Part shown: positions 26,683 to 60,600 of the stretch, piece by piece
Layout: each line of letters opens with the position of its first letter
Numbering within the stretch: position 1 is the first letter of the stretch
DNA from: a bacterium
GTDB taxonomy: Bacteria > SAR324 > NAC60-12
DNA: 64,000 nt
Direction: 5' to 3'
NCBI GenBank assembly: GCA_965205865.1
Contig: CBDBHR010000030.1
Location: forward strand, 1,152,001-1,216,000
Notes under the pieces: generated by a model
Told to the model about the DNA's origin: nothing
What the model saw: the letters and a program-made list of their open reading frames with translations, nothing else
The model's database searches: none
Position numbers and translations under genes: made by a program

Positions 26683-28559
26683 AACAAGCGCGTTAACCAA
26701 ACGGCAAACGGACTCTTCGCTGCCCGCATCCGTGCTGGAAACGGGTTCAACCGGCGTACCGCTTTCGACAATATTCCACACGCCATCGGCGTCTTGCGTA
26801 CTCTGTTCCGCTTCGTTTCACTCGATGATTTGCCCGACCCCCTGGCTTGGTGCGTGGACGACATCGCTGAGGGGTTGGCCGTGGCCGATGTCCCCGGAAT
26901 TCTTGATCACTACTACCGTGAAGGCAAGGGTAATGACCCGATCGTGCATTTCTACGAGACCTTCCTGGCACAGTACGATCCCGGCGAACGCGAACGCAGA
27001 AGGGTTTATTACACGCCTGAACCGGTGGTGGGGTACATTGTTCGGTCCTTGCATGGTCTCCTCAAAACGGAATTCAAGCAGCGCGATGGTCTCGCTTCCG
27101 ACGGCGTGACCCTGCTTGATCCGGCGGCAGGAACCATGACCTTTGTCGCCCGCGCCGCCCAACAGGCCGTAGCCGAGTTCGAGGCCAAATATGGTAGCGG
27201 TGGGCGGGAAGACTTTATCCGCCGACACATTCTCAGGAATTTTTACGCCCTCGAGTTGATGATGGCGCCCTATGCAGTCGGTCATCTCAAAATGAGCTTC
27301 CTTCTGGAAGAACTCGGTCACCGTCTCGCCAACGACGAGCGCGTACCGTTCTATCTCTCCAATACCCTCGACGTGGAAGAGCTGGAACAGAGCCACTTGC
27401 CCGGCCTTTCCGCCTTGGCCGAGGAATCGCGCCTGGCTGGAACGGTCAAGAAGCAGACCCCGATCCTACTCATCCTCGGCAATCCTCCCTATTCGGGTCA
27501 TTCGAGTAACAGAGGCGACTGGATACGAGGGTTGATCGAAGATTACAAACAAGTGGATGGGAGTCCCCTGGGTGAGAAAAACCCGAAGTGGCTCCAGGAT
27601 GACTACGTCAAATTCCTCCGTTTCGCCCAGTGGAAAATCGAGCAAGCCGGACAAGGTATCGTCGGCATGATCACCAATCACAGCTACCTCGACAACCCCA
27701 CTTTTCGTGGCATGCGCCGCAGTCTGATGCGTACCTTCGACGACATCCATATCGTCGACCTGCACGGCAACTCCCTCAAGAAGGAGAGGTGCCCCGATGG
27801 CAGTCCAGACCAGAACGTCTTCGACTTGTCGGTGCTGGTGAATGGAATCTGATCTACTGCTCACAAAGAATAGAGGATTTCAACCTTTTCTACCGAGGCG
27901 GAAACGTAAATTTCCCGCTTTACCTCTATCCCTCCACCGTCCCCAAAGACCTCTTCACTCAACAACAGTCAGCCAAACGAAAACCGAACCTGAACCCCGA
28001 GTTGATGACGGCACTGGCGAAGGCGCATGGCAGAAAAACCTCTCCCGAGACGATCTTCCACTACGTCTACGCCGTTTTACATGCCCCGGCTTATCGCAAT
28101 AAATATGCCCAATTCCTGCATACCGATTTCCCGCGTATCCCGTTTACTACAGACAAGGATTTGTTTGACAAGCTCGCCGATCTGGGCTCACGACTGGTCG
28201 CCTTACATCTCCTCGAGTCACCAGAACTCGATCCGCCTGCCTGCCGTTTTGATGGGGAGGGCGACGCCATGGTTGCGCGGACAAAGGCGCAGGGCTTTCG
28301 CTACGACCCCGCTGAGCAACGCTTGCATATCAACAGAACGCAATACTTCGGTCCTCTCTCTGCAGAAGTATACCAATACCGGATCGGTGGCTATCAGGTC
28401 TGTGAAAAATGGTTGAAAGATCGCAAGGATCGTCGTCTCCAACTCTACGACGTTCGCGCCTATTGCCGGATGGCGACTACTATCGAGCTCACGATCACAG
28501 TCCAGCAACAGCTTGATGACCTCTATCCCAAAAAAGGGGTCAGGCCTTTGATTAAATGA
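26683..28559 (+). pseudogene. Broken N6-MTase/TRD restriction-modification gene (Type ISP/IIG-related)
   Basis: YYTPEPVV, LDPAAGT and GNPPY in 26794-27852. The C-terminal DFPRIP / YRIGGYQVCEKWLKDRK part is in another frame after an internal deletion near 27825, and the N-terminus is missing. Confidence 0.85.
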
Positions 28560-28616
28560 AAAGGGGGCAAAAAAACTGGACTCGCTCCTAATCAAATAAT
28601 CAAAGGCCTGACCACC
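28536..28616. repeat. Inverted pair of GGGGTCAGG-family repeats
   Basis: GGTCAGGCCTTTGATTA and its perfect reverse complement lie about 40 bp apart. Confidence 0.8.
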
Positions 28617-34551: not shown

Positions 34552-35084
34552 GGGGTCAGGCTTGCAAGTTTGCAAAAATGGGTATTCTTTAAATTTTAAC
34601 CTTTTTCAATTTGCCAAGATGTCTCGGAAAACGCGTTTGTACGACCCTGGCACGCTTTATCATGTGACACTTCGAGTCAATGGGGGGCAACGTACTTTTC
34701 GATGGCAACGACTCTCGTCGTTTTTATCAGTCTTTGATTGGAAATCTGCAACAATCCGGGAAGTGGCAAATGCTCTCAATTGAGATGATTCTACTATCAG
34801 TCGTGGCGCGCATAAGTTGAGAGAAAGATTGAAGGAATTCACAAATCTCGATAGTCGTCCGCTTGAGTGTTGTTCCTCTGAAAATCGGGAAAAATAACTG
34901 TAGACCGTGGTAACCACGCCGGAAAATGCCTTCTATTTGCTGAATCCCAACACTTCACAGGGAGAATTTTGCTGATAAGAGGCACTAACACTCAAGAGGG
35001 AGACTATCCAAATCTCCAAGAGTGGTTAAAAGAACTCAACCTAAAAATGTTTTCTTAAATTCGCAAACTTGCAAGTCTGACCCC
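34552..35084 (+). mobile_element. Decayed RAYT/Y1-transposase element bounded by 22-bp inverted repeats
   Basis: GGGGTCAGGCTTGCAAGTTTGC / GCAAACTTGCAAGTCTGACCCC (21/22). Inside is MSRKTRLYDPGTLYHVTLRVNG (from 34619) and an HTH-like tail. Confidence 0.8.
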
Positions 35085-52730: not shown

Positions 52731-52992
52731 AAGGGATCGATTGTTTTTTTAAGTTAGTTGGTCAAGGTTTGGAAGACAACTATGAAGAGAGCGGGGGTAC
52801 GTTGACCTGAGGAATGAACAGTTGCTTTCATTGGAATTGAAGAGGTGATTCGAGAGGGAGTCTATGAGATTCAGATCAAGTTCTCAAATGGATTTCTCTT
52901 GAAGAGATTCAGAGATATCTTGAAAACAAAAAAAGACTGAAACGAACCATTTTGAAGTTTCCGGAGACACTCAGAAAGGATTGGAGCGAGAA

Positions 52993-53888
52993 ACTAGGTA
53001 AGCTCATAATTTTCCCTTCCGTTCAAAACTTATCCTTCGCAATAAGCTTACCGGCGAGAACTGTTCCCATGCGCCACGCAGATAAGGCTTCGAGTCCTCC
53101 GGCAATGACTTGCCAGGCTTCTACGCTCTTTGCACTTCGATGGCGCATGCTTCTCCGTTGATATCCCATTCGGCTCCACGTCGACCGGACATCAGGTGAC
53201 CACTGGGAATAGCTTCCAGGTGATTGGCAAGAGTTTCCGTCTTGATAAACTGATCAAATCGCGTGACTGCTGTTTGCACGAATTGTGAAGTTTGATAACG
53301 AACATGAATACGCGCCATCACGTCGAACGCCTGCTCTTTTCTCATATTCTGTACTTTATTGACGAATTCCCGGGCAAATCCTTCCTGTTGCAAGTCAATT
53401 GTCAGTTCCGTATTCAGGGCAACGGTCACATTGTTTTCCGTCTGCGCCAGTAAGCCTTCTTTTTCATGACGTTGCAAAAGCACGTCTTCGGGTGCTAAGA
53501 TAATAGTTTCTCCATCCAACTCCAATGTCGTCCGTTTGCCATCCCGCAGCCGAAAAATAGCGGAGGAATCGAGCTCCACAATGGTTCGGGCGACTTGTTT
53601 CATGCGAACTCCGAGCTTCGGTCCGAGCACACTGTAATTGGCCTTGGCGCTGTAAGTCACTAAATCTTCTTCATTATCAGCCACGACGACTTTCTTGATA
53701 TTCAACTCTTCCGTGATCAATTCTTCCATGTCGTTCAAAATCGCTACGGCTTCCGGGTCACGGGTCACCAGAAAAATGCTGGCAAGGGGTTGTCGTATTT
53801 TCAATTGATGCTTGTTACGCAAGGCGCGTCCCATGCTGACTGCCGAGAGCACCAATTCCATTTTCTTTTCGATTGCAGGGTCCCGATA
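52993..53888 (-). repeat. Near-identical duplicate of 57519-58414 (ileS 3' end and downstream DNA)
   Basis: The offset is 4526 bp at both ends, with only scattered substitutions. Confidence 0.97.
53121..53888 (-). pseudogene. ileS: ileS 3' fragment
   Basis: The 246-aa ORF is nearly identical to the IleRS C-terminus. Confidence 0.93.
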
Positions 53889-53901
53889 TTGGGGTCAGGC
53901 T

Positions 53902-55500
53902 GTGCGCCAGGAAAGCTGGCAAGAAATAGAGAGTGAAAGTCTCTTACTCGGTAAGGCAGTAACGACCCGCCGAGTCCCCGAGTCATGAGTGGTTATTCGC
54001 AAGGATAGGCGCTAAGCGTTGACAGGGGAGAACATAGGCTCGGTATTGAGCTCCGAAATCATAGTCTCAGGCGCTGACCTTGTGGTCTGGTGGGGAAGGC
54101 AATATCAACCGAAGGCGTTAGCGTGAGTCTCGGCTGAGCCTGGCGGAGTCAAAGACCCGGTGCATGTGTGGAAGTTTCTTGATCGGAACCTGGGAGATCC
54201 TGAAGACGACTGTCAACATTCTATTGGTAGTCGGATCGGGAAAATTAATAAATAACCCCGATATCTACGTCTTCAGGAAGTCGGACAAGTTCGTAGTAGC
54301 GTGAGCAGCCGACAAGGCTGTGGATTTTGGAGAGTGAAAGTCTCTCTGTCGTCAGTTTCCCATTCGGGCGACTAGCATATCCGGTGCGCTTAGCAGGTAA
54401 CTGCTTTGCGTTCTGCCCGGAAGTAAAAGTCACCGTCTGCTTTGGACGAGAGTCCATAGTGGGAGCCAACAGGGTGGCGAGCAAACCTGGAGGCCTGAAC
54501 ATTAGTGAATGATTGCAGCTCCGAAAGAGACTTCCGTCGTGAATTGGCTTGACGGTGTGTTGCCCAACCGCCGACCCGCTCGCTACTCGGGGAAGGCCGA
54601 AGTTCCAAGGGAAGTAATGGGAACAGGCACCTTGGAGGGAGCCGGAGTATGGATCCAAGCATCCAGGGAAAGATCCACAGAGATAACGTCGGGAAGGGCC
54701 AACTTCCAGCAGGGACTCGCAATAACCTGCAAGGACCTACCGTATAGGGTAACACCGAAATCGGCAGGAGGATTTTGGTCTGGCGCATGAGTCCGTATGA
54801 GCGATGAAGACCGGGTAACGCTGGTCGAGGGGATGCTTGGACATCTCCCTTTTGGAGGTAACACCTCTAAAAGGCAAAGGGGCTCTCGGTAAATGGCGGG
54901 CATTTCATGAACCACTGCCGAACTTGTGTCGGTCAAGAGTGTCACCACAAAGAATGTCGAGCTGGAGATCAAATCACTCACTCCAGGGGTGAATGCAGGC
55001 GAGTGCTTAAGCTTCGGATTGGGTGGGAAGGGTTTCTGGGGAAACGCTGTTGCTGCCAACCGGACTCGGGAAATCCGACCGTCCGGGATGAGAGGGGGGC
55101 TTGCGGAAACGTGATGCAGGGTCTGACGCCCTTTTGCCACGAAACCGGAAACGGGGGATACATTGGAAGTCGTTGACCTAAACATGCGCGCGCCGTATTT
55201 CTACCCGGCATGAAGCGGCGAACAATGAGATCATTTGCAGAGAGTAACAATGCAAAGGAAATCAACGGAGCCTGTGGAGCAAAGGGACTTGGCTGAGAGG
55301 AATTCTGCTTGCCCTCCTGTGTTCGGAACTCAGAGGCCGTAAAATCAGAGAGCGGTTTAAGCAGGGTGCGCCAAACGGCAACGTTTGAGCGTCTGACTCG
55401 AAGCAGGAGCCGGATGCGTTAGCAGCGCACGTCCGGATCTGTACCGGAGGAATGACGAAAGGTGGCTGGAAACCACTATAAGTCAGTTCTTTACGGTGAC
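53902..55500 (+). ncRNA. Outer ORF-less group II intron (53902-54300 + 55210-55500, 690 nt; class E-like by recollection)
   Basis: GTGCG 5' end, DI motifs, DIII split by the inner intron, DV GAGCCGGATGCG...CGCACGTCCGGATC at 55407-55439, and a 3' end ...ACGGTGAC. Confidence 0.9.
54301..55209 (+). ncRNA. Inner ORF-less group II intron (909 nt)
   Basis: GTGAG 5' end, EBS1 GCTACT (54582-54587) complementary to upstream AGTAGC, DV at 55057-55090, and a 3' end CTACCCGGC. Confidence 0.87.
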
Positions 55501-55691
55501 TGCATACTTGTATTTAAATCGTGAAATGCCACTCAGACAAAGGACTGAGACTTTGTTCCTTTCTGAGACCTTCCTTGCTGAACAGACAACGCATTGCTTT
55601 TCAAACCTAGATGAGAGTCAATCTTCAGATAGATGAAAAACTCATGCACTTTAGACAATTTCTTAATACAAATACCCCAGCCTGCCCCCAT

Positions 55692-56864
55692 TTATGTGTT
55701 CGTCCTTTTTTTCGCATAGGACTTGAGTTTAGATTGATATTCGCTGATTCGGTGGTCCTTTCCAGCAATAGATGGGCCATTGGCAATCATCCTCCTGGCC
55801 AACCGAAAGACGCGAAATGGCATACCGAGGTTTGGAATGACTTTGAGCTTGGAGACATTCATCTCACAAGCCGTCAGGTAGCGCATATCACCTTGATGCA
55901 TGTAACCGCAGAAATTCCGTTCCAAACAATCCGCCAGTTCGCGATTTATAAAGGAAACAAGGAAGACAATACAATGAGTCACCCAAGAGGGCGGTACGCG
56001 GGGAACACCATCTGCTGCGTTGACGATACGGTATATTGGCGCGCGAATCTCTTCACCGAATTCCTCATTGCCCACACGCGGACTGCCATACGTGTAGCAG
56101 GCGGCTAGCGAATCACGTTCCAATTCCTCGCATGCGACAACTGCAAGAGCGCCACCCAGGGAATGACCGGTAATATAGAGGGAAAAACCTTCCGGTAAAT
56201 TATCGACTGCGGATTTGACTTGATCACTTACCTGATTGTACGCGGCTCGGAAACCGCTATGAATTTTAACGCCCGCTTCGCCCTTGTAAAATCGGGTATT
56301 CAAATCTGTCTTGACGTCATTCCAACTATTCGCTTCAGTACCGCGAAACGCGAGAACGGCGATTTTATCTTTTTCGCGTCCAGCAAGAAATGCCTGCGTA
56401 TCGTTTATGTTGAAGGTACAAATAAGATTGAAACAGGCATCAGCAAGAGCGTCTTTTAGTTTCTGAAGACCGGGAGGCGTCTTAGCGTCGCCATCGAGTT
56501 TTTGGGCGATATAATTCTTCAGATTTTCTTCCAGTTCCGTAATTCGTCCGGCCGTTCCCTCTCCTCTATCTTTTTTCCATGCAATTTTTGCAAGCTTGGC
56601 TATTGCATCGAGTACTTCCTTGAACTGGTATTCGCCCTCGAATTGCAAATATGCAAGCGCACTCATCTCGCTCATCATCCAAGCCGTGCGATCACTGTAT
56701 GCAGCCCGGTTTGTCGGCAAGACTTTCAAATTTTCCGGTACATTAAAGTAATCACTCATTTTGTGCGCTATCGTATTACAGTGTTTATCGAAGGGATGTT
56801 TGCTTAGATTGCAAGCCCAGTCTCGAAATGGTCTCCCGATGTGGTTTTCCCGGACGTCAAGCAT
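55692..56864 (-). CDS. Lipase class 3 family protein
   Basis: AFRGT, TGHSLGG, YGSPRVGN, DGVPRVP and a terminal DH. Confidence 0.9.
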   Translation of the reverse strand: MLDVRENHIGRPFRDWACNLSKHPFDKHCNTIAHKMSDYFNVPENLKVLPTNRAAYSDRTAWMMSEMSALAYLQFEGEYQFKEVLDAIAKLAKIAWKKDRGEGTAGRITELEENLKNYIAQKLDGDAKTPPGLQKLKDALADACFNLICTFNINDTQAFLAGREKDKIAVLAFRGTEANSWNDVKTDLNTRFYKGEAGVKIHSGFRAAYNQVSDQVKSAVDNLPEGFSLYITGHSLGGALAVVACEELERDSLAACYTYGSPRVGNEEFGEEIRAPIYRIVNAADGVPRVPPSWVTHCIVFLVSFINRELADCLERNFCGYMHQGDMRYLTACEMNVSKLKVIPNLGMPFRVFRLARRMIANGPSIAGKDHRISEYQSKLKSYAKKRTNT

Positions 56865-57062
56865 CCCGCAAGAACATGGATTTTAAAAAAAAACATTTTC
56901 ATGTTCCTCTTTTTATTCAGAATTGCTCAACTCGAGTAAGAGTTAAAGCAGGGATGACAGGCTCGGTAATTTTCGAGCAATATTCACTGCTGTTTTTCCC
57001 AGAGCTTTCACTTGTTTCACCAAGGCGGCCTGATTGAGATTTTGTTGCGTCGCTTCCTGCAC

Positions 57063-57522
57063 TAGTGTATTGCCTGTTTAATACATTTGTATTATTGGTC
57101 ATTTGGTAGACAGGTTTGAGTTTGTTGATAATTTCTTCGGCAGTTTTAGTCCAAACATATGGTTTTGGGTTGCGATTGTGCGCTTCGATGTAACTATGGA
57201 TGGCTTCGGTCAACTCGAGCACGCTTTTGAAGGCGCCTCGCCGTCGCCACTTTCCAACGGAATTGCCGCTGGTTCCAAGCGTTTTGGCAATCTCTTGATT
57301 CTTAAGGCCATCAGCAGCCAACAGGATGATGCGCGCACGAAGAGCGTCTCGCATCGCTCCGGTCTGACGGCGTGCGGTTTTGCTCAATTCATCCCGTTCT
57401 TCCCGGGTCAGTTTTATACTTGGCGCTTTCCTAATGCTGTCTCCATATATGCAAATAAAAAGACAGCTCTAGTATAGCAAACCAAGGAATTATTTACACA
57501 TTAATAAAAGAGCGACACACTA
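57063..57522 (-). mobile_element. Internally deleted (non-autonomous) copy of the IS630 at 40780
   Basis: Both ends are retained with CTAG flanks; about 720 bp of transposase is missing at the junction near 57240. Confidence 0.93.
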
Positions 57523-57646
57523 GGTAAGCTCATAATTATCCCTTCCGTTCAATACTTATCCTTCGCAACAAGCTTACCTGCGAGAACTGTTCCCATGCGC
57601 CACGCAGATGAGGCTTCGAGTCCTCCGGCAATGACTTGCCAGGCTT

Positions 57647-60600
57647 CTACGCTCTTTGCACTTCGATGGCGCATGCTTCTCCGTTGATATCCCATTCGGT
57701 TCCACGTCGACCGGACATCAGGTGACCACTGGGAATAGCTTCCAGGTGATTGGCAAGAGTTTCCGTCTTGATAAACTGATCAAATCGCGTGACTGCTGTT
57801 TGCACGGATTGTGAAGTTTGATAACGAACATGAATACGCGCCATCACGTCGAACGCCTGCTCTTTTCTCATATTCTGTACTTTATTGACGAATTCCCGGG
57901 CAAATCCTTCTTGTTGCAAGTCAATTGTCAGTTCCGTATTCAGGGCAACGGTCACATTGTTTTCCGTCTGCGCCAGTAAGCCTTCTTTTTCATGACGTTG
58001 CAAAAGCACGTCTTCGGGTGCTAAGATAATAGTTTCTCCATCCAACTCCAATGTCGTCCGTTTGCCATCCCGCAGCCGAAAAATAGCGGAGGAATCGAGC
58101 TCCGCAATGGTTCGGGCGACTTGTTTCATGCGAACTCCGAGCTTCGGTCCGAGCACCCTGTAATTGGCCTTGGCGCTGTAAGTCACTAAATCTTCTTCAT
58201 TGTCAGCCACGACGACTTTCTTGATATTCAACTCTTCCGTGATCAATTCTTCCATGTCGTTCAAAATCGCTACGGCTTCCGGGTCACGGGTCACCAGAAA
58301 AATGCTGGCAAGGGGTTGTCGTATTTTCAATTGATGCTTGTTACGCAAGGCGCGTCCCATGCTGACTGCCGAGAGCACCAATTCCATTTTCTTTTCGATT
58401 GCAGGGTCCCGATAGCGTCTCCGGACTTGGGGAAAGTTCGCCAGGTGCACGCTCTCTTCATCTCGTTCGTTTCGCAGATTGCGGTAAATTCCTTCGGCAA
58501 TAAAGGGCACAAAGGGTGCGATCACTTTGGAGAGCTCCACTAAGACCTGATAAAGTACCGCATAGGCTTCCTGCTTGTCTTTTCCCTGTCCCGCCTTCCA
58601 AAATCGGCGGCGGCTGCGTCTAATATACCAATTGGTCAACAAGTCGATGAAGCCCACGAAAGGAGCAACGGATTTATTCAAATCGTAGGCGTCCATGCTG
58701 GCTCTCACTGTTTCGATCAGTCCCTGCAATTTGGACAATATCCAGCGATCCAGGGGATTGGAGGGCATGCTCAGTATTTCCCCGGAGGGCTGCCAGCGGT
58801 CGATAGCGGCATAGGTGGTCAGAAAGGCCAGAGCATTCCAAAGGGGCAGCAAAATAGAACGGGTGGTGTCCACCAGTCCTTTTTCCGAAAACCTGAGATC
58901 GTCTCCGCGTACTGCCGGGGAATTGAGCATGTAGAGACGAATGGCATCCGCTCCATATTGGTCCAACATGTTGATAGGATCCGGATAGTTTTTCAGTCGT
59001 TTGCTCATTTTTTTACCATCTTCAGCCAGGACGAGTCCGTTGACGATGACATTGTGAAAGGCCGGTTTGTTGTACAATGCCGTCCCGACGACGACCAGAG
59101 AATAGAACCAGCCTCTTGTTTGATCCAACCCCTCACAAATAAAATCCGCAGGGAAATTGGCGTCAAATCTTTCTTTGTTTTCAAAAGGGTAATGTTCCTG
59201 ACCATAGGGCATAGAGCCGGATTCGAACCAACAATCGAGCACTTCGGGAATCCGCTTATATATTTTGTCATTTTGAACTATCACCAGATCGTCCACCAAG
59301 TGTTTGTGCAAATCTTCCACTTTTTGTCCGCTCGCTTCTTCCAGTTCTGCCACGCTACCGAAACAGAGACAATCTCCATCCTCACTCTTCCAAATCGGCA
59401 ATGGGGTTCCCCAGAAACGATTTCGACTGATGGCCCAGTCTCTCGCATTTTCCAACCATTTGCCAAAACGTCCATCCCGGATGTGCCCCGGTACCCAATG
59501 AATGGTCTGATTATTTTGCACCATCTGGTCTTTGATTGCTTCCACCTTGACGAACCAGGTCGAGATGGCTTTATAGATGAGGGGGGTGTCCGTTCGCCAG
59601 CAGAAGGGATAACTGTGTTCGATGGTTTCGTGTCTGAGAATTTTGTTCTTGTCTTTCAAATAGCGGATGATCGTTTTGTCGGCCGCCTTGATATTCAACC
59701 CTGCCAGGAATCCCATGTAGGATTGAAAATTTCCGTCATCGTCCACCGGGTCGAACAGGGGTAAACCTTCCCGCAGGCCAATCCGCAAGTCATCTTCACC
59801 AAAGGCTGGCGCTTGGTGGACAATGCCGGTTCCACTTTCATCACTGATATAATCGTCGACCAGCACCCGCCATACCCGGCTGCTGTCCACTCGTCCAATG
59901 GCAAAGTCAAACGGTGGATGATAAGTTTTGTTCCGCAAATCGCTGCCTTTCAAGGCGTCAAGCACTTCATATTCACCGGCTTGCCAATAAGCAGGTATGC
60001 GGTTGGTTGCCAGGTAATAGTTTTCTCCACTGGCCTTTTCCCTGATTTTGACGTAATCTATTTCCGCTCCGACACAGCATGCCAGATTTGCGGGGATGGT
60101 CCAGGGAGTGGTGGTCCATCCTAAATAATAAGTGTTTTCCTCATCAGTCGCCTGGCATTTGAAAGTAATCGAAGGATCCTGCGTCTCCTGATAGTTGAGG
60201 TTGGCTTCGAAATTGGAAAGAGGAGTTGAAAGCCGCCAGGAATAAGGCACCACTTTTCTGCCTTCGTAGATGAGATTCTTCTGCCATAATTGTTTCATCA
60301 CCCACCAAACAGATTCCATGTAGGAGCGATCCATGGTTTTGTAATCGTTGTCAAAATCTACCCAACGGGCCATACGATCCACGGTTTCCCGCCATTCCCT
60401 GGTGTATCGTAATACGATTTTGCGACATGCTTCATTGTAATTCCCTATACCAAATTCGATGATATCCGGACGCCCTTCTAATTGGAGCGCTTGTTCCACC
60501 TCAAACTCGACCGGCAGTCCGTGGCAATCCCAACCAAAACGCCGTTCCACTCGATGGCCTCGCATGGTTTTGTAACGAGGAATGACGTCTTTGATGGTAC

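Follow-up and report, generated by a model that had tools for sequence, protein, structure and literature searches.

The 64,000-nt window analysed here, positions 1,152,001 to 1,216,000 of contig CBDBHR010000030.1 in a SAR324 assembly (GCA_965205865.1, lineage NAC60-12), contains a group II intron that lies in the end of a small transposon-like element and is itself interrupted by a second insert (Table 1). The question raised by this locus is whether the intron came there by aiming at the repeat that forms the end of the element, or in some other way. The reading put forward here, which we hold to be highly probable, is that the locus is a single member of a group II intron family which is proliferating and which retrohomes at a defined position in the end of a DNA transposon present in many copies. 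Positions without a contig number are those of the window; the whole genome (G000) comprises 4.74 Mb in 30 contigs, with 48% G+C, 91.9% completeness and 3.7% contamination.

The intron and its boundaries

The outer element is a group II intron without its open reading frame (ORF). An Rfam search matched RF02005 (group-II-D1D4-6) at 53936–54158 with 168.1 bits (gathering threshold 49), which is the sole above-threshold Rfam match in the whole window. The ends of the intron, GTGCG at 53902 and ...GAC at 55500, fit the group II consensus GUGYG/AY and are also present in 41 (5') and 38 (3') sister copies, and the architecture of domain I with its exon-binding loop is indicated both by the RF02005 score and by the covariation of exon-binding site 1 (EBS1) described below. 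A permissive search of 3.5 kb placed RF00029 (domains V and VI) at 55405–55500 with 31 bits, below the gathering threshold of 40 (E 0.002); the alignment includes the AGC triad, the strands GAGCCGGAUGCG...CGCACGUCCGGAUC and a predicted bulged domain VI. Apart from this and the RF02003 match in the insert (see below), the permissive search gave nothing notable. The 692-nt sister copies correspond to positions 1–400 and 1309–1600 of the window copy. The latter has no reverse transcriptase (RT)/maturase in domain IV, where some 30 N-terminal codons are left, and it lacks one G after 55338, which is present in all four public runs that cover the intron (three RNA-library contig sets and one other run, X1).

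Outside the intron, the mini-element consists of 53891–53901 and 55501–55689. The right end of a decayed Y1 element (C29:383280–384195), which carries a copy of the intron at its other end, can be aligned with the final ~150 nt of the mini-element; the alignment makes the latter an internally deleted, ~200-bp member of the TGCATAYTKGTATT family. The ligated exons had been matched in the earlier note to an uninterrupted repeat at 34552, and the first 15 bases are indeed identical, as are 18/21 overall; closer matches are provided by the uninterrupted GGGGTCAGGCTTGCATACTTGTATTT at C30:921035, 64039, 62598 and 67662.

Copies of the intron and their flanks

BLAST searches with the intron ends found 41 5' ends and 39 3' matches, one of the latter stopping short of the end (38 true 3' ends), and pairing of the ends gave 32 complete copies. 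These include 13 copies of 689–692 nt (the basic ORF-less form), four of 1957 nt, one of 2039 nt and three of 1599–1606 nt with a ~908-nt insert, the others being of assorted lengths. The earlier note had proposed that a multicopy repeat is the homing site and had suggested tabulating the flanks of all homologous copies. In that tally, exact GGGGTCAGGCY precedes 23 of the 41 5' ends and GGGTCAGRCY precedes 28, while 11 of the other 13 flanks are near-matches (e.g., GGGGACAGGCC, GGGAGTCAGGCC and GGGGATAGGACC). The sequence further upstream is unique and mostly A-rich. Position +1, directly behind the intron, is occupied by T at 32 of the true 3' ends, by C at five and by G at one, and the 3' flanks fall into classes beginning with TTGATTA... 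(16 ends), GCAAG/GCATA/GCGAG/GAAAG... (10), CGTTA... (2) and GTGAC... (1), with nine unique flanks; 29/38 run on into recognisable element interiors.

The genome contains 138 occurrences of GGGGTCAGGCY against seven of the reversed control pattern. The relaxed motif GGGTCAGRCY occurs 174 times, with an intron start following in 29 cases, and the ~145 uninterrupted heads represent empty sites, which continue with TTTGAT (38), TGCAAG (32), TGCATA (16), TGAAAG (7) or smaller classes. Taken together, the flank tally, the 3' ends that lie in element interiors and the empty heads identify the multicopy repeat as the homing site, as had been proposed. Within the window, the head motif with at most one mismatch was found six times against 1.86 expected, a number reached in 2/100 shuffles, which is weak on its own.

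Two outer introns lie head-to-tail at C26:239009–240179 (copies starting at 239009 and 239712), the second beginning directly after the last base of the first.

Pairing of the intron with the 5' exon

The loop GGTCTG, which the earlier note had placed at the EBS1 position, is unpaired in the RF02005 alignment and can form four Watson–Crick and two G-U pairs with CAGGCT, as well as five Watson–Crick pairs and one G-U pair with the CAGACT variant at 35074–35084 (minus strand), so both pairings of that note were borne out. Since the loop has a U opposite exon position −3, CAGACY, which only rare heads have, would be the ideal target and CAGGCY a wobble target. Within the genome, GGTCTG is accompanied by T at −1 in 13 copies and by C in nine, and AGTCTG by T in seven and by C in three; no clear association of the loop variant with the −1 base is seen in this genome. 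The AGTCTG and GGTCTG sub-lineages, each with a linked change, both occur in several element families.

The comparison of 41 related genomes (G000 included) found the intron in three of them. The loop is GGTCTG with CAGGCY flanks in G000; AGCCTG with CAGGCT in G001, which belongs to the same genus, with the flanks GGGGGTCTGGCT (three copies with the same upstream 18 nt), GGGGGGCAGGCT, GGGGGTCAGTCC and AAAGGATGGGCT; and TGGCTG with CAGCCA in G008, from another genus, with the flanks AGGACAGCCA (two copies) and AGGACAACCA (one). A wider search of named genomes with the intron-encoded protein (IEP) yielded 37 loci containing 27 RF02005 matches. Twenty-six of these matches were aligned with one copy each from G001 and G008, upstream sequence was available for 26 of the 28, and the pairing was read by eye. 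Between the loop and exon −6..−1, 14 of these 26 relatives have six of six Watson–Crick pairs, five have six of six with one wobble, four have five of six, and three were unresolved; the 14 different loop sequences found among the relatives change together with the exon. This covariation shows that the assignment of GGTCTG as EBS1 is right, and it demonstrates the predicted pairing of EBS1 (GGUCUG or AGUCUG) with CAGGCY at −6..−1. A single-sequence fold of the EBS1 region was no better than shuffles.

The G-run at −11..−8 and the T at +1 are kept at off-target sites too, the G-run at most of them, and the retention of the G-run there implies that something reads it; judging from their conservation, both may take part in target recognition. 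Two candidates for a second exon-binding site, EBS2, were rejected. GACCC (53965–53969) seemed compensatory in the comparison with G008 (A to U opposite T to A at −7), and proved in the wider alignment to be one strand of a covarying stem of 2–3 bp; ACCCC (54257) is invariant in G008 despite the different target there and lies within a stem in Psychrobium.

The distribution of copies bears on a rival explanation, according to which a single entry of the intron into an element end was followed by copying of the composite through the Y1 transposase. The flanks at C28:358767 and C29:409363 are indeed identical, as are the 18 nt upstream of three G001 copies, and four ~112-bp units in Psychrobium (see below) resemble a small element copied together with an intron fragment. 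However, copies are found in at least five families with unrelated interiors and at about nine unique sites, including near-match heads; both intron sub-lineages are spread across several families, and at C29:726248, 729456 and 734414, where the elements are sisters from one family, some introns contain the ORF and others lack it. EBS1, moreover, follows the flank across genomes. Multiplication by hitch-hiking is therefore an unlikely origin of the family as a whole, and retrohoming to the element end is preferred.

The target elements and their common head

The listing of genomic occurrences places the 11-mer outermost, as the head of terminal inverted repeats. Just inside the head, a word specific to the family is present twice with a spacing of 8 nt, e.g., TTGCAAGT/TTGCAAAA, TTGATTAT/TTGATTAG, TCGTTATT/TCGTTAAT, TGAAAGTT/TGAAACTT and TGCATACT/TGTATTTC. 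At least five families of elements share the head, all with a Y1 (IS200-like) transposase that also has a DnaA-type helix-turn-helix (HTH), and so do hairpin derivatives of 52–81 bp. The earlier view of the target as the repeat of one element thus stands as regards its multicopy nature, but the target is the head of several Y1 families and of their hairpins rather than of a single element. In the long members, the heads bracket ORFs of 328–330 aa (e.g., L002 246–1232 and L003 212–1204), and these two ORFs match PF01797 (Y1_Tnp) with 46.8 and 52.5 bits (cut-off 23). The ORFs of this length also match PF08299 (DnaA C-terminal helix-turn-helix), and NF047646 (REP-associated tyrosine transposase) scores 65.6 and 71.6 bits, below its cut-off of 80. 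The DnaA-type domain may bind the paired subterminal words.

In the systems of repetitive extragenic palindromic (REP) sequences and REP-associated tyrosine transposases (RAYT), Y1 transposase genes are flanked by inverted repeats, and short hairpin doublets (REPINs) occur genome-wide. Inverted flanking repeats and hairpin doublets are present in the target elements as well, so that these act like a RAYT/REP system without being members of it, given the sub-cut-off NF047646 scores and genes that are multicopy in several families. The likeness extends to the use of the repeats as landing sites by other mobile elements; the transposases found here differ in being multicopy, in their DnaA-type HTH and in falling below the RAYT equivalog cut-off. 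Heads or half heads in short tandem, e.g., GGGGTCAG followed after 5 nt by GGGGTCAGGCY, or two full heads separated by 5–12 nt, were observed at many places (e.g., C16:13796, C28:52762, C29:81866 and C30:568346) and may be footprints of element turnover.

The head could alternatively be a host repeat that Y1 elements and the intron chose independently as a landing site. Insertion sequence (IS) elements that land in REP palindromes are documented (PMC1525189), and the heads are common to families with differing subterminal sequences. Against this stands the spacing of perfect head pairs, of which nine were found with the heads 31–61 nt apart and none at 30 nt or less, so that no empty palindrome is seen; where a head precedes unique sequence, the fourth G is mostly missing, and such heads are no more numerous than a chance estimate of ~36 (for a 10-mer with two degenerate positions). 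The motif is enriched in the same-genus genome G001 (36 against 3 for the control) and is at control level in the other 39 related genomes. We regard a host repeat as very unlikely and keep to the head as a part of the transposons. A chance motif or an assembly artefact (collapsed repeats in a metagenome assembly), to which the weak within-window count and the incomplete assembly might point, is scarcely credible in view of the genome-wide excess of the head, the unique upstream flanks and the same junction sequences, present as contigs in public runs from several studies.

The intron-encoded protein and the inner insert

The 1957-nt form of the intron holds an ORF of 470 aa (470–475 aa across the open copies) that encodes an RT/maturase, matching TIGR04416 with 343 bits (cut-off 300). 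Its Pfam content is limited to RVT_1, with no HNH/En domain found, so that the IEP appears to lack an endonuclease. The state of the ORF was established for four of the five copies of ORF length; an open frame was seen in L001, L015 and L032 and a broken one in L005, the copy of 2039 nt. The ORF-less form retains the first ~43 codons, and this remnant, together with the lengths of 1957 and 692 nt, indicates that it arose by a deletion of ~1265 nt. The statement of the earlier note that none of the nested elements is autonomous applies to the window locus, but not to the genome, where at least three sister copies have an open IEP gene and intact transposase genes exist elsewhere.

The insert of 908 nt within the outer intron is probably a degenerate, ORF-less group II intron, as suggested by a sub-threshold match of its D1-like 5' part (54328–54504) to RF02003 (33.2 bits, below 49, in the permissive Rfam search) and by a D5-like hairpin with a 2-nt bulge predicted near 55059–55092. 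A single-sequence fold of the 3' part of the insert (z-score 0.89) is no better than shuffles, and RF00029 (D5) gave no match in the insert at E up to 10. The genome has four copies of the insert, 100% identical and all at position 400 of outer introns, and one 196-nt fragment; the insert was not found in G001 or G008. With 13 outer copies of 689–692 nt that are free of the insert and four that contain it, the nesting is of the twintron type. The three-level nest of mini-element, outer intron and insert described earlier is real, the intron nature of its innermost level being the probable part. The only clean joint in the contigs of the public runs, 54301 to 55210, is also found in run X1, taken as DNA, and reflects the 692-nt DNA copies, not splicing.

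A second kind of twintron is located at C28:326218–327824 (L028 1501–3107), where a different ORF-less intron of ~907 nt occupies position ~396 of an outer-intron copy. Domain V of this intron is clear (44 bits with RF00029, above threshold), and the intron is inserted 4 nt from the point used by the window insert, which marks this place in the outer intron as a recurrent landing site for other introns.

Features of the window

The coordinates of the features are collected in Table 1. A duplication of ~905 bp (52984–53888 and 57510–58414) comprises the 3' end of the isoleucyl-tRNA synthetase gene and ~140 bp downstream; the spare copy of the 3' end stops 2 nt before the head of the mini-element, and the two copies are 4526 bp apart. 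Between them lie the mini-element with the twintron, a class-3-lipase-like ORF (55692–56864, minus strand) and an IS630-like transposase fragment (56917–57387, minus strand), the last two labels being given from their look only.

Table 1. Positions of the mini-element, the nested introns and related elements in the window
Feature	Position	Strand	Remarks
Uninterrupted ~80-bp hairpin element, TTTGATTA family	28536–28615		Empty target at left head (28536–28546; C30:1180537)
Uninterrupted decayed 533-bp relative, TGCAAGTTTGC family	34552–35084		24-nt inverted repeats; start of decayed Y1 ORF; two empty targets
Left head of mini-element, GGGGTCAGGCT (5' exon)	53891–53901	+	11-mer common to 23/41 intron 5' ends and many element inverted repeats
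Intron-binding site 1 (IBS1), CAGGCT	53896–53901	+	Last 6 nt of left head
Outer group II intron, ORF-less, with insert (twintron-like)	53902–55500	+	Begins GTGCGCC, ends ...CGGTGAC; sequence reading, Rfam and sister copies
EBS1 loop, GGTCTG	54084–54089	+	Unpaired loop in RF02005 alignment; covaries with exon in relatives
Inner 908-nt insert	54302–55209	+	Probably a degenerate ORF-less group II intron
Remnant of IEP gene start (MQRKSTEPVEQ...)	55250–55379	+	Shares N-terminus with 470-aa ORF of copy L001
Putative domains V and VI of outer intron	55405–55500	+	RF00029 alignment, below threshold
3' exon: mini-element interior and right inverted repeat	55501–55689	+	Begins TGCATACTTG, +1 is T (55501); first subterminal repeat TGCATACTTGTATT
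Right head of mini-element, GGGGGCAGGCT	55679–55689	minus	

Related introns in other lineages

Related introns were found at similar heads, next to Y1-like genes or in inverted-repeat elements, in other lineages. In Psychrobium sp., AAAAAAAAGGGACAGGCA precedes the intron, and ~110 nt downstream begins a Y1-like ORF with an HUH-type motif (PF01797 E 9e-4, sub-threshold); the 12-mer AAGGGACAGGCA is present 14 times and its control not once, and at one empty site its continuation is identical to the 3' exon. In a metagenome-assembled genome (MAG) of Candidatus Thiodiazotropha, a 343-aa Y1-like ORF begins 70 nt after the intron; it scores 37 bits with NF047646, and BLASTP aligns it with the element ORF of the present genome over the HUH and tyrosine motifs (E 2e-7). 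In a Planctomycetaceae MAG, the intron parts GGAAGGGGGACAGGCG from the rest of an inverted-repeat element of ~80 bp at three loci, its insertion point being the equivalent one.

Perhaps these introns share one habit, although on balance we doubt it: an RF02005-type, endonuclease-less sub-clade might have become co-specialised across several phyla (this lineage, Gammaproteobacteria and Planctomycetota) on the conserved head (A-rich, GGGG, A/T, CAGGC-like) of one Y1/HUH superfamily and its hairpin derivatives, always inserting between the head and the subterminal repeats. The intron would then be a dedicated parasite of these transposons and likely their inactivator, and the head, held constant by the transposase, would be a target hard to escape.

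Four units of ~112 bp were observed in Psychrobium (G041), at C1:1250445–1250556 and three like places. In each of them a head and an inverted head enclose 78 nt from the 5' end of the intron and AAATTTT; it seems that a small inverted-repeat element was multiplied there together with the intron fragment in its interior. At a locus of Endozoicomonas ascidiicola (L036 4234–6363), a scan of the context showed that the ORF downstream of a related intron matches PF07906 (ShET2 enterotoxin N-terminal region) with E 2.6e-13.

Proposed mechanism and its appraisal

The target of the intron is the junction of the invariant 11-nt head GGGGTCAGGCY with the family-specific subterminal repeats, which start in T; this junction lies in the terminal inverted repeats of the Y1 (HUH, IS200-like) and DnaA-HTH elements and of hairpins that resemble miniature inverted-repeat transposable elements (MITEs) or REPINs. 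The window copy, having lost its RT in the ~1265-nt deletion, would have to be served in trans by the endonuclease-less RT/maturase of 470 aa that sister copies encode. Insertion may be primed at the replication fork, and the two ends of an element, which offer the target in both orientations, would be convenient for this. With a head that several element families have in common, a single intron could invade them all, and since the targets are non-coding selfish DNA, splicing and the ORF would be free of host selection, so that copies may decay. The loss of the ORF, the 1-nt deletion and the second insert at the window locus would be instances of such decay. By parting the head from the subterminal repeats, the insertion probably disables that end of the transposon.

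Several findings weigh against this picture. Neither splicing nor mobility was observed, and no 53901–55501 joint is listed among the contigs of the public runs, which, as contigs, cannot show its absence. EBS2 was not found, both candidates having failed. The shared flanks of some copies (the C28:358767 and C29:409363 pair and the three in G001) possibly reflect duplications, and an assembly of 30 contigs, 91.9% complete with 3.7% contamination, makes the repeat copy numbers approximate. The flank motif of G008, AGGACARCCA, shows no enrichment (38 occurrences, control 37), and no inverted head was found within the fetched Psychrobium and Thiodiazotropha loci (L058 and L065). In S. meliloti, a relative whose IEP is 52% identical sits in the IEP gene of another intron, from which it follows that the habit is not clade-wide.

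The intron family offers a natural example of a retroelement that reaches high copy number in a bacterium without harm, by aiming at a short stretch of another selfish element, which has to preserve it unchanged and goes on multiplying it. As the head is common to several transposon families, saturation of target sites would be avoided without a change of specificity. If the cross-phylum link were true, intron flanks could be used to locate the ends of poorly described Y1 and DnaA-HTH transposons, and the system would be a tractable one for the conflict between a retroelement and DNA transposons.

Comparison with known systems

The closest habit is that of RmInt2, all seven copies of which lie in the inverted repeats of ISRm17, and whose authors argued that doubled targets guarantee one on the lagging-strand template (PMC4615759, PMC5894124). 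As in the present genome, where copies occupy the same point of the repeats at either element end, RmInt2 uses a single point of IS inverted repeats, with two oppositely oriented targets per element. The IEP of RmInt2 lacks the endonuclease, for which no domain was found in the present IEP either; ORF-deleted donors of RmInt2 move when the IEP is supplied separately, and head-to-tail double insertions are described there (PMC4615759) as they are found here at C26:239009/239712. The differences concern the target, which is one IS family for RmInt2 and here the 11-nt head of at least five Y1/HUH families and of 52–81-bp hairpins, and the copies, which for RmInt2 are seven, identical and ORF-bearing, whereas here there are 41 ends, mostly of ORF-less forms. 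RmInt2 belongs to class D; the nearest IEP found in S. meliloti, with 52% identity, belongs to a different intron. In the RmInt1/ISRm2011-2 pair, a high-copy IS likewise serves as the natural homing site; the insertion is thought to block the IS, and ectopic sites have a similar IBS, but it is the transposase gene of an IS630 element that contains the target and not, as here, a terminal repeat (PMC5894124).

Association with REP sequences is described for a group II intron of P. putida, of which two of nine copies are at REPs (PMC1525189), whereas the association of the intron with its target is near-exclusive in the present case. Bacterial ORF-less introns and twintrons are described as rare (PMC4424553). 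We found no description of an intron aimed at the ends of Y1 elements in a literature search that most subscription journals lay beyond.

The 28 related introns TeI3/TeI4 of Thermosynechococcus elongatus (Mohr, Ghanem, Lambowitz 2010, PMC2882425) share with the present family the dozens of copies, the ORF-less derivatives, which arose through loss of the ORF by deletion and use IEPs in trans, the preferential insertion into other introns and insertion elements, and the nesting of introns. There, proliferation was accompanied by divergence to six target specificities, while here one EBS1, with a G/A variant, and one conserved head are seen, so that the route to high copy number differs from the target divergence described for T. 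elongatus. Thus, intron homing to IS ends is a known kind of association; what is new in the present genome is the Y1/HUH and hairpin class of target, the service of one head to several element families, and a possible link across phyla.

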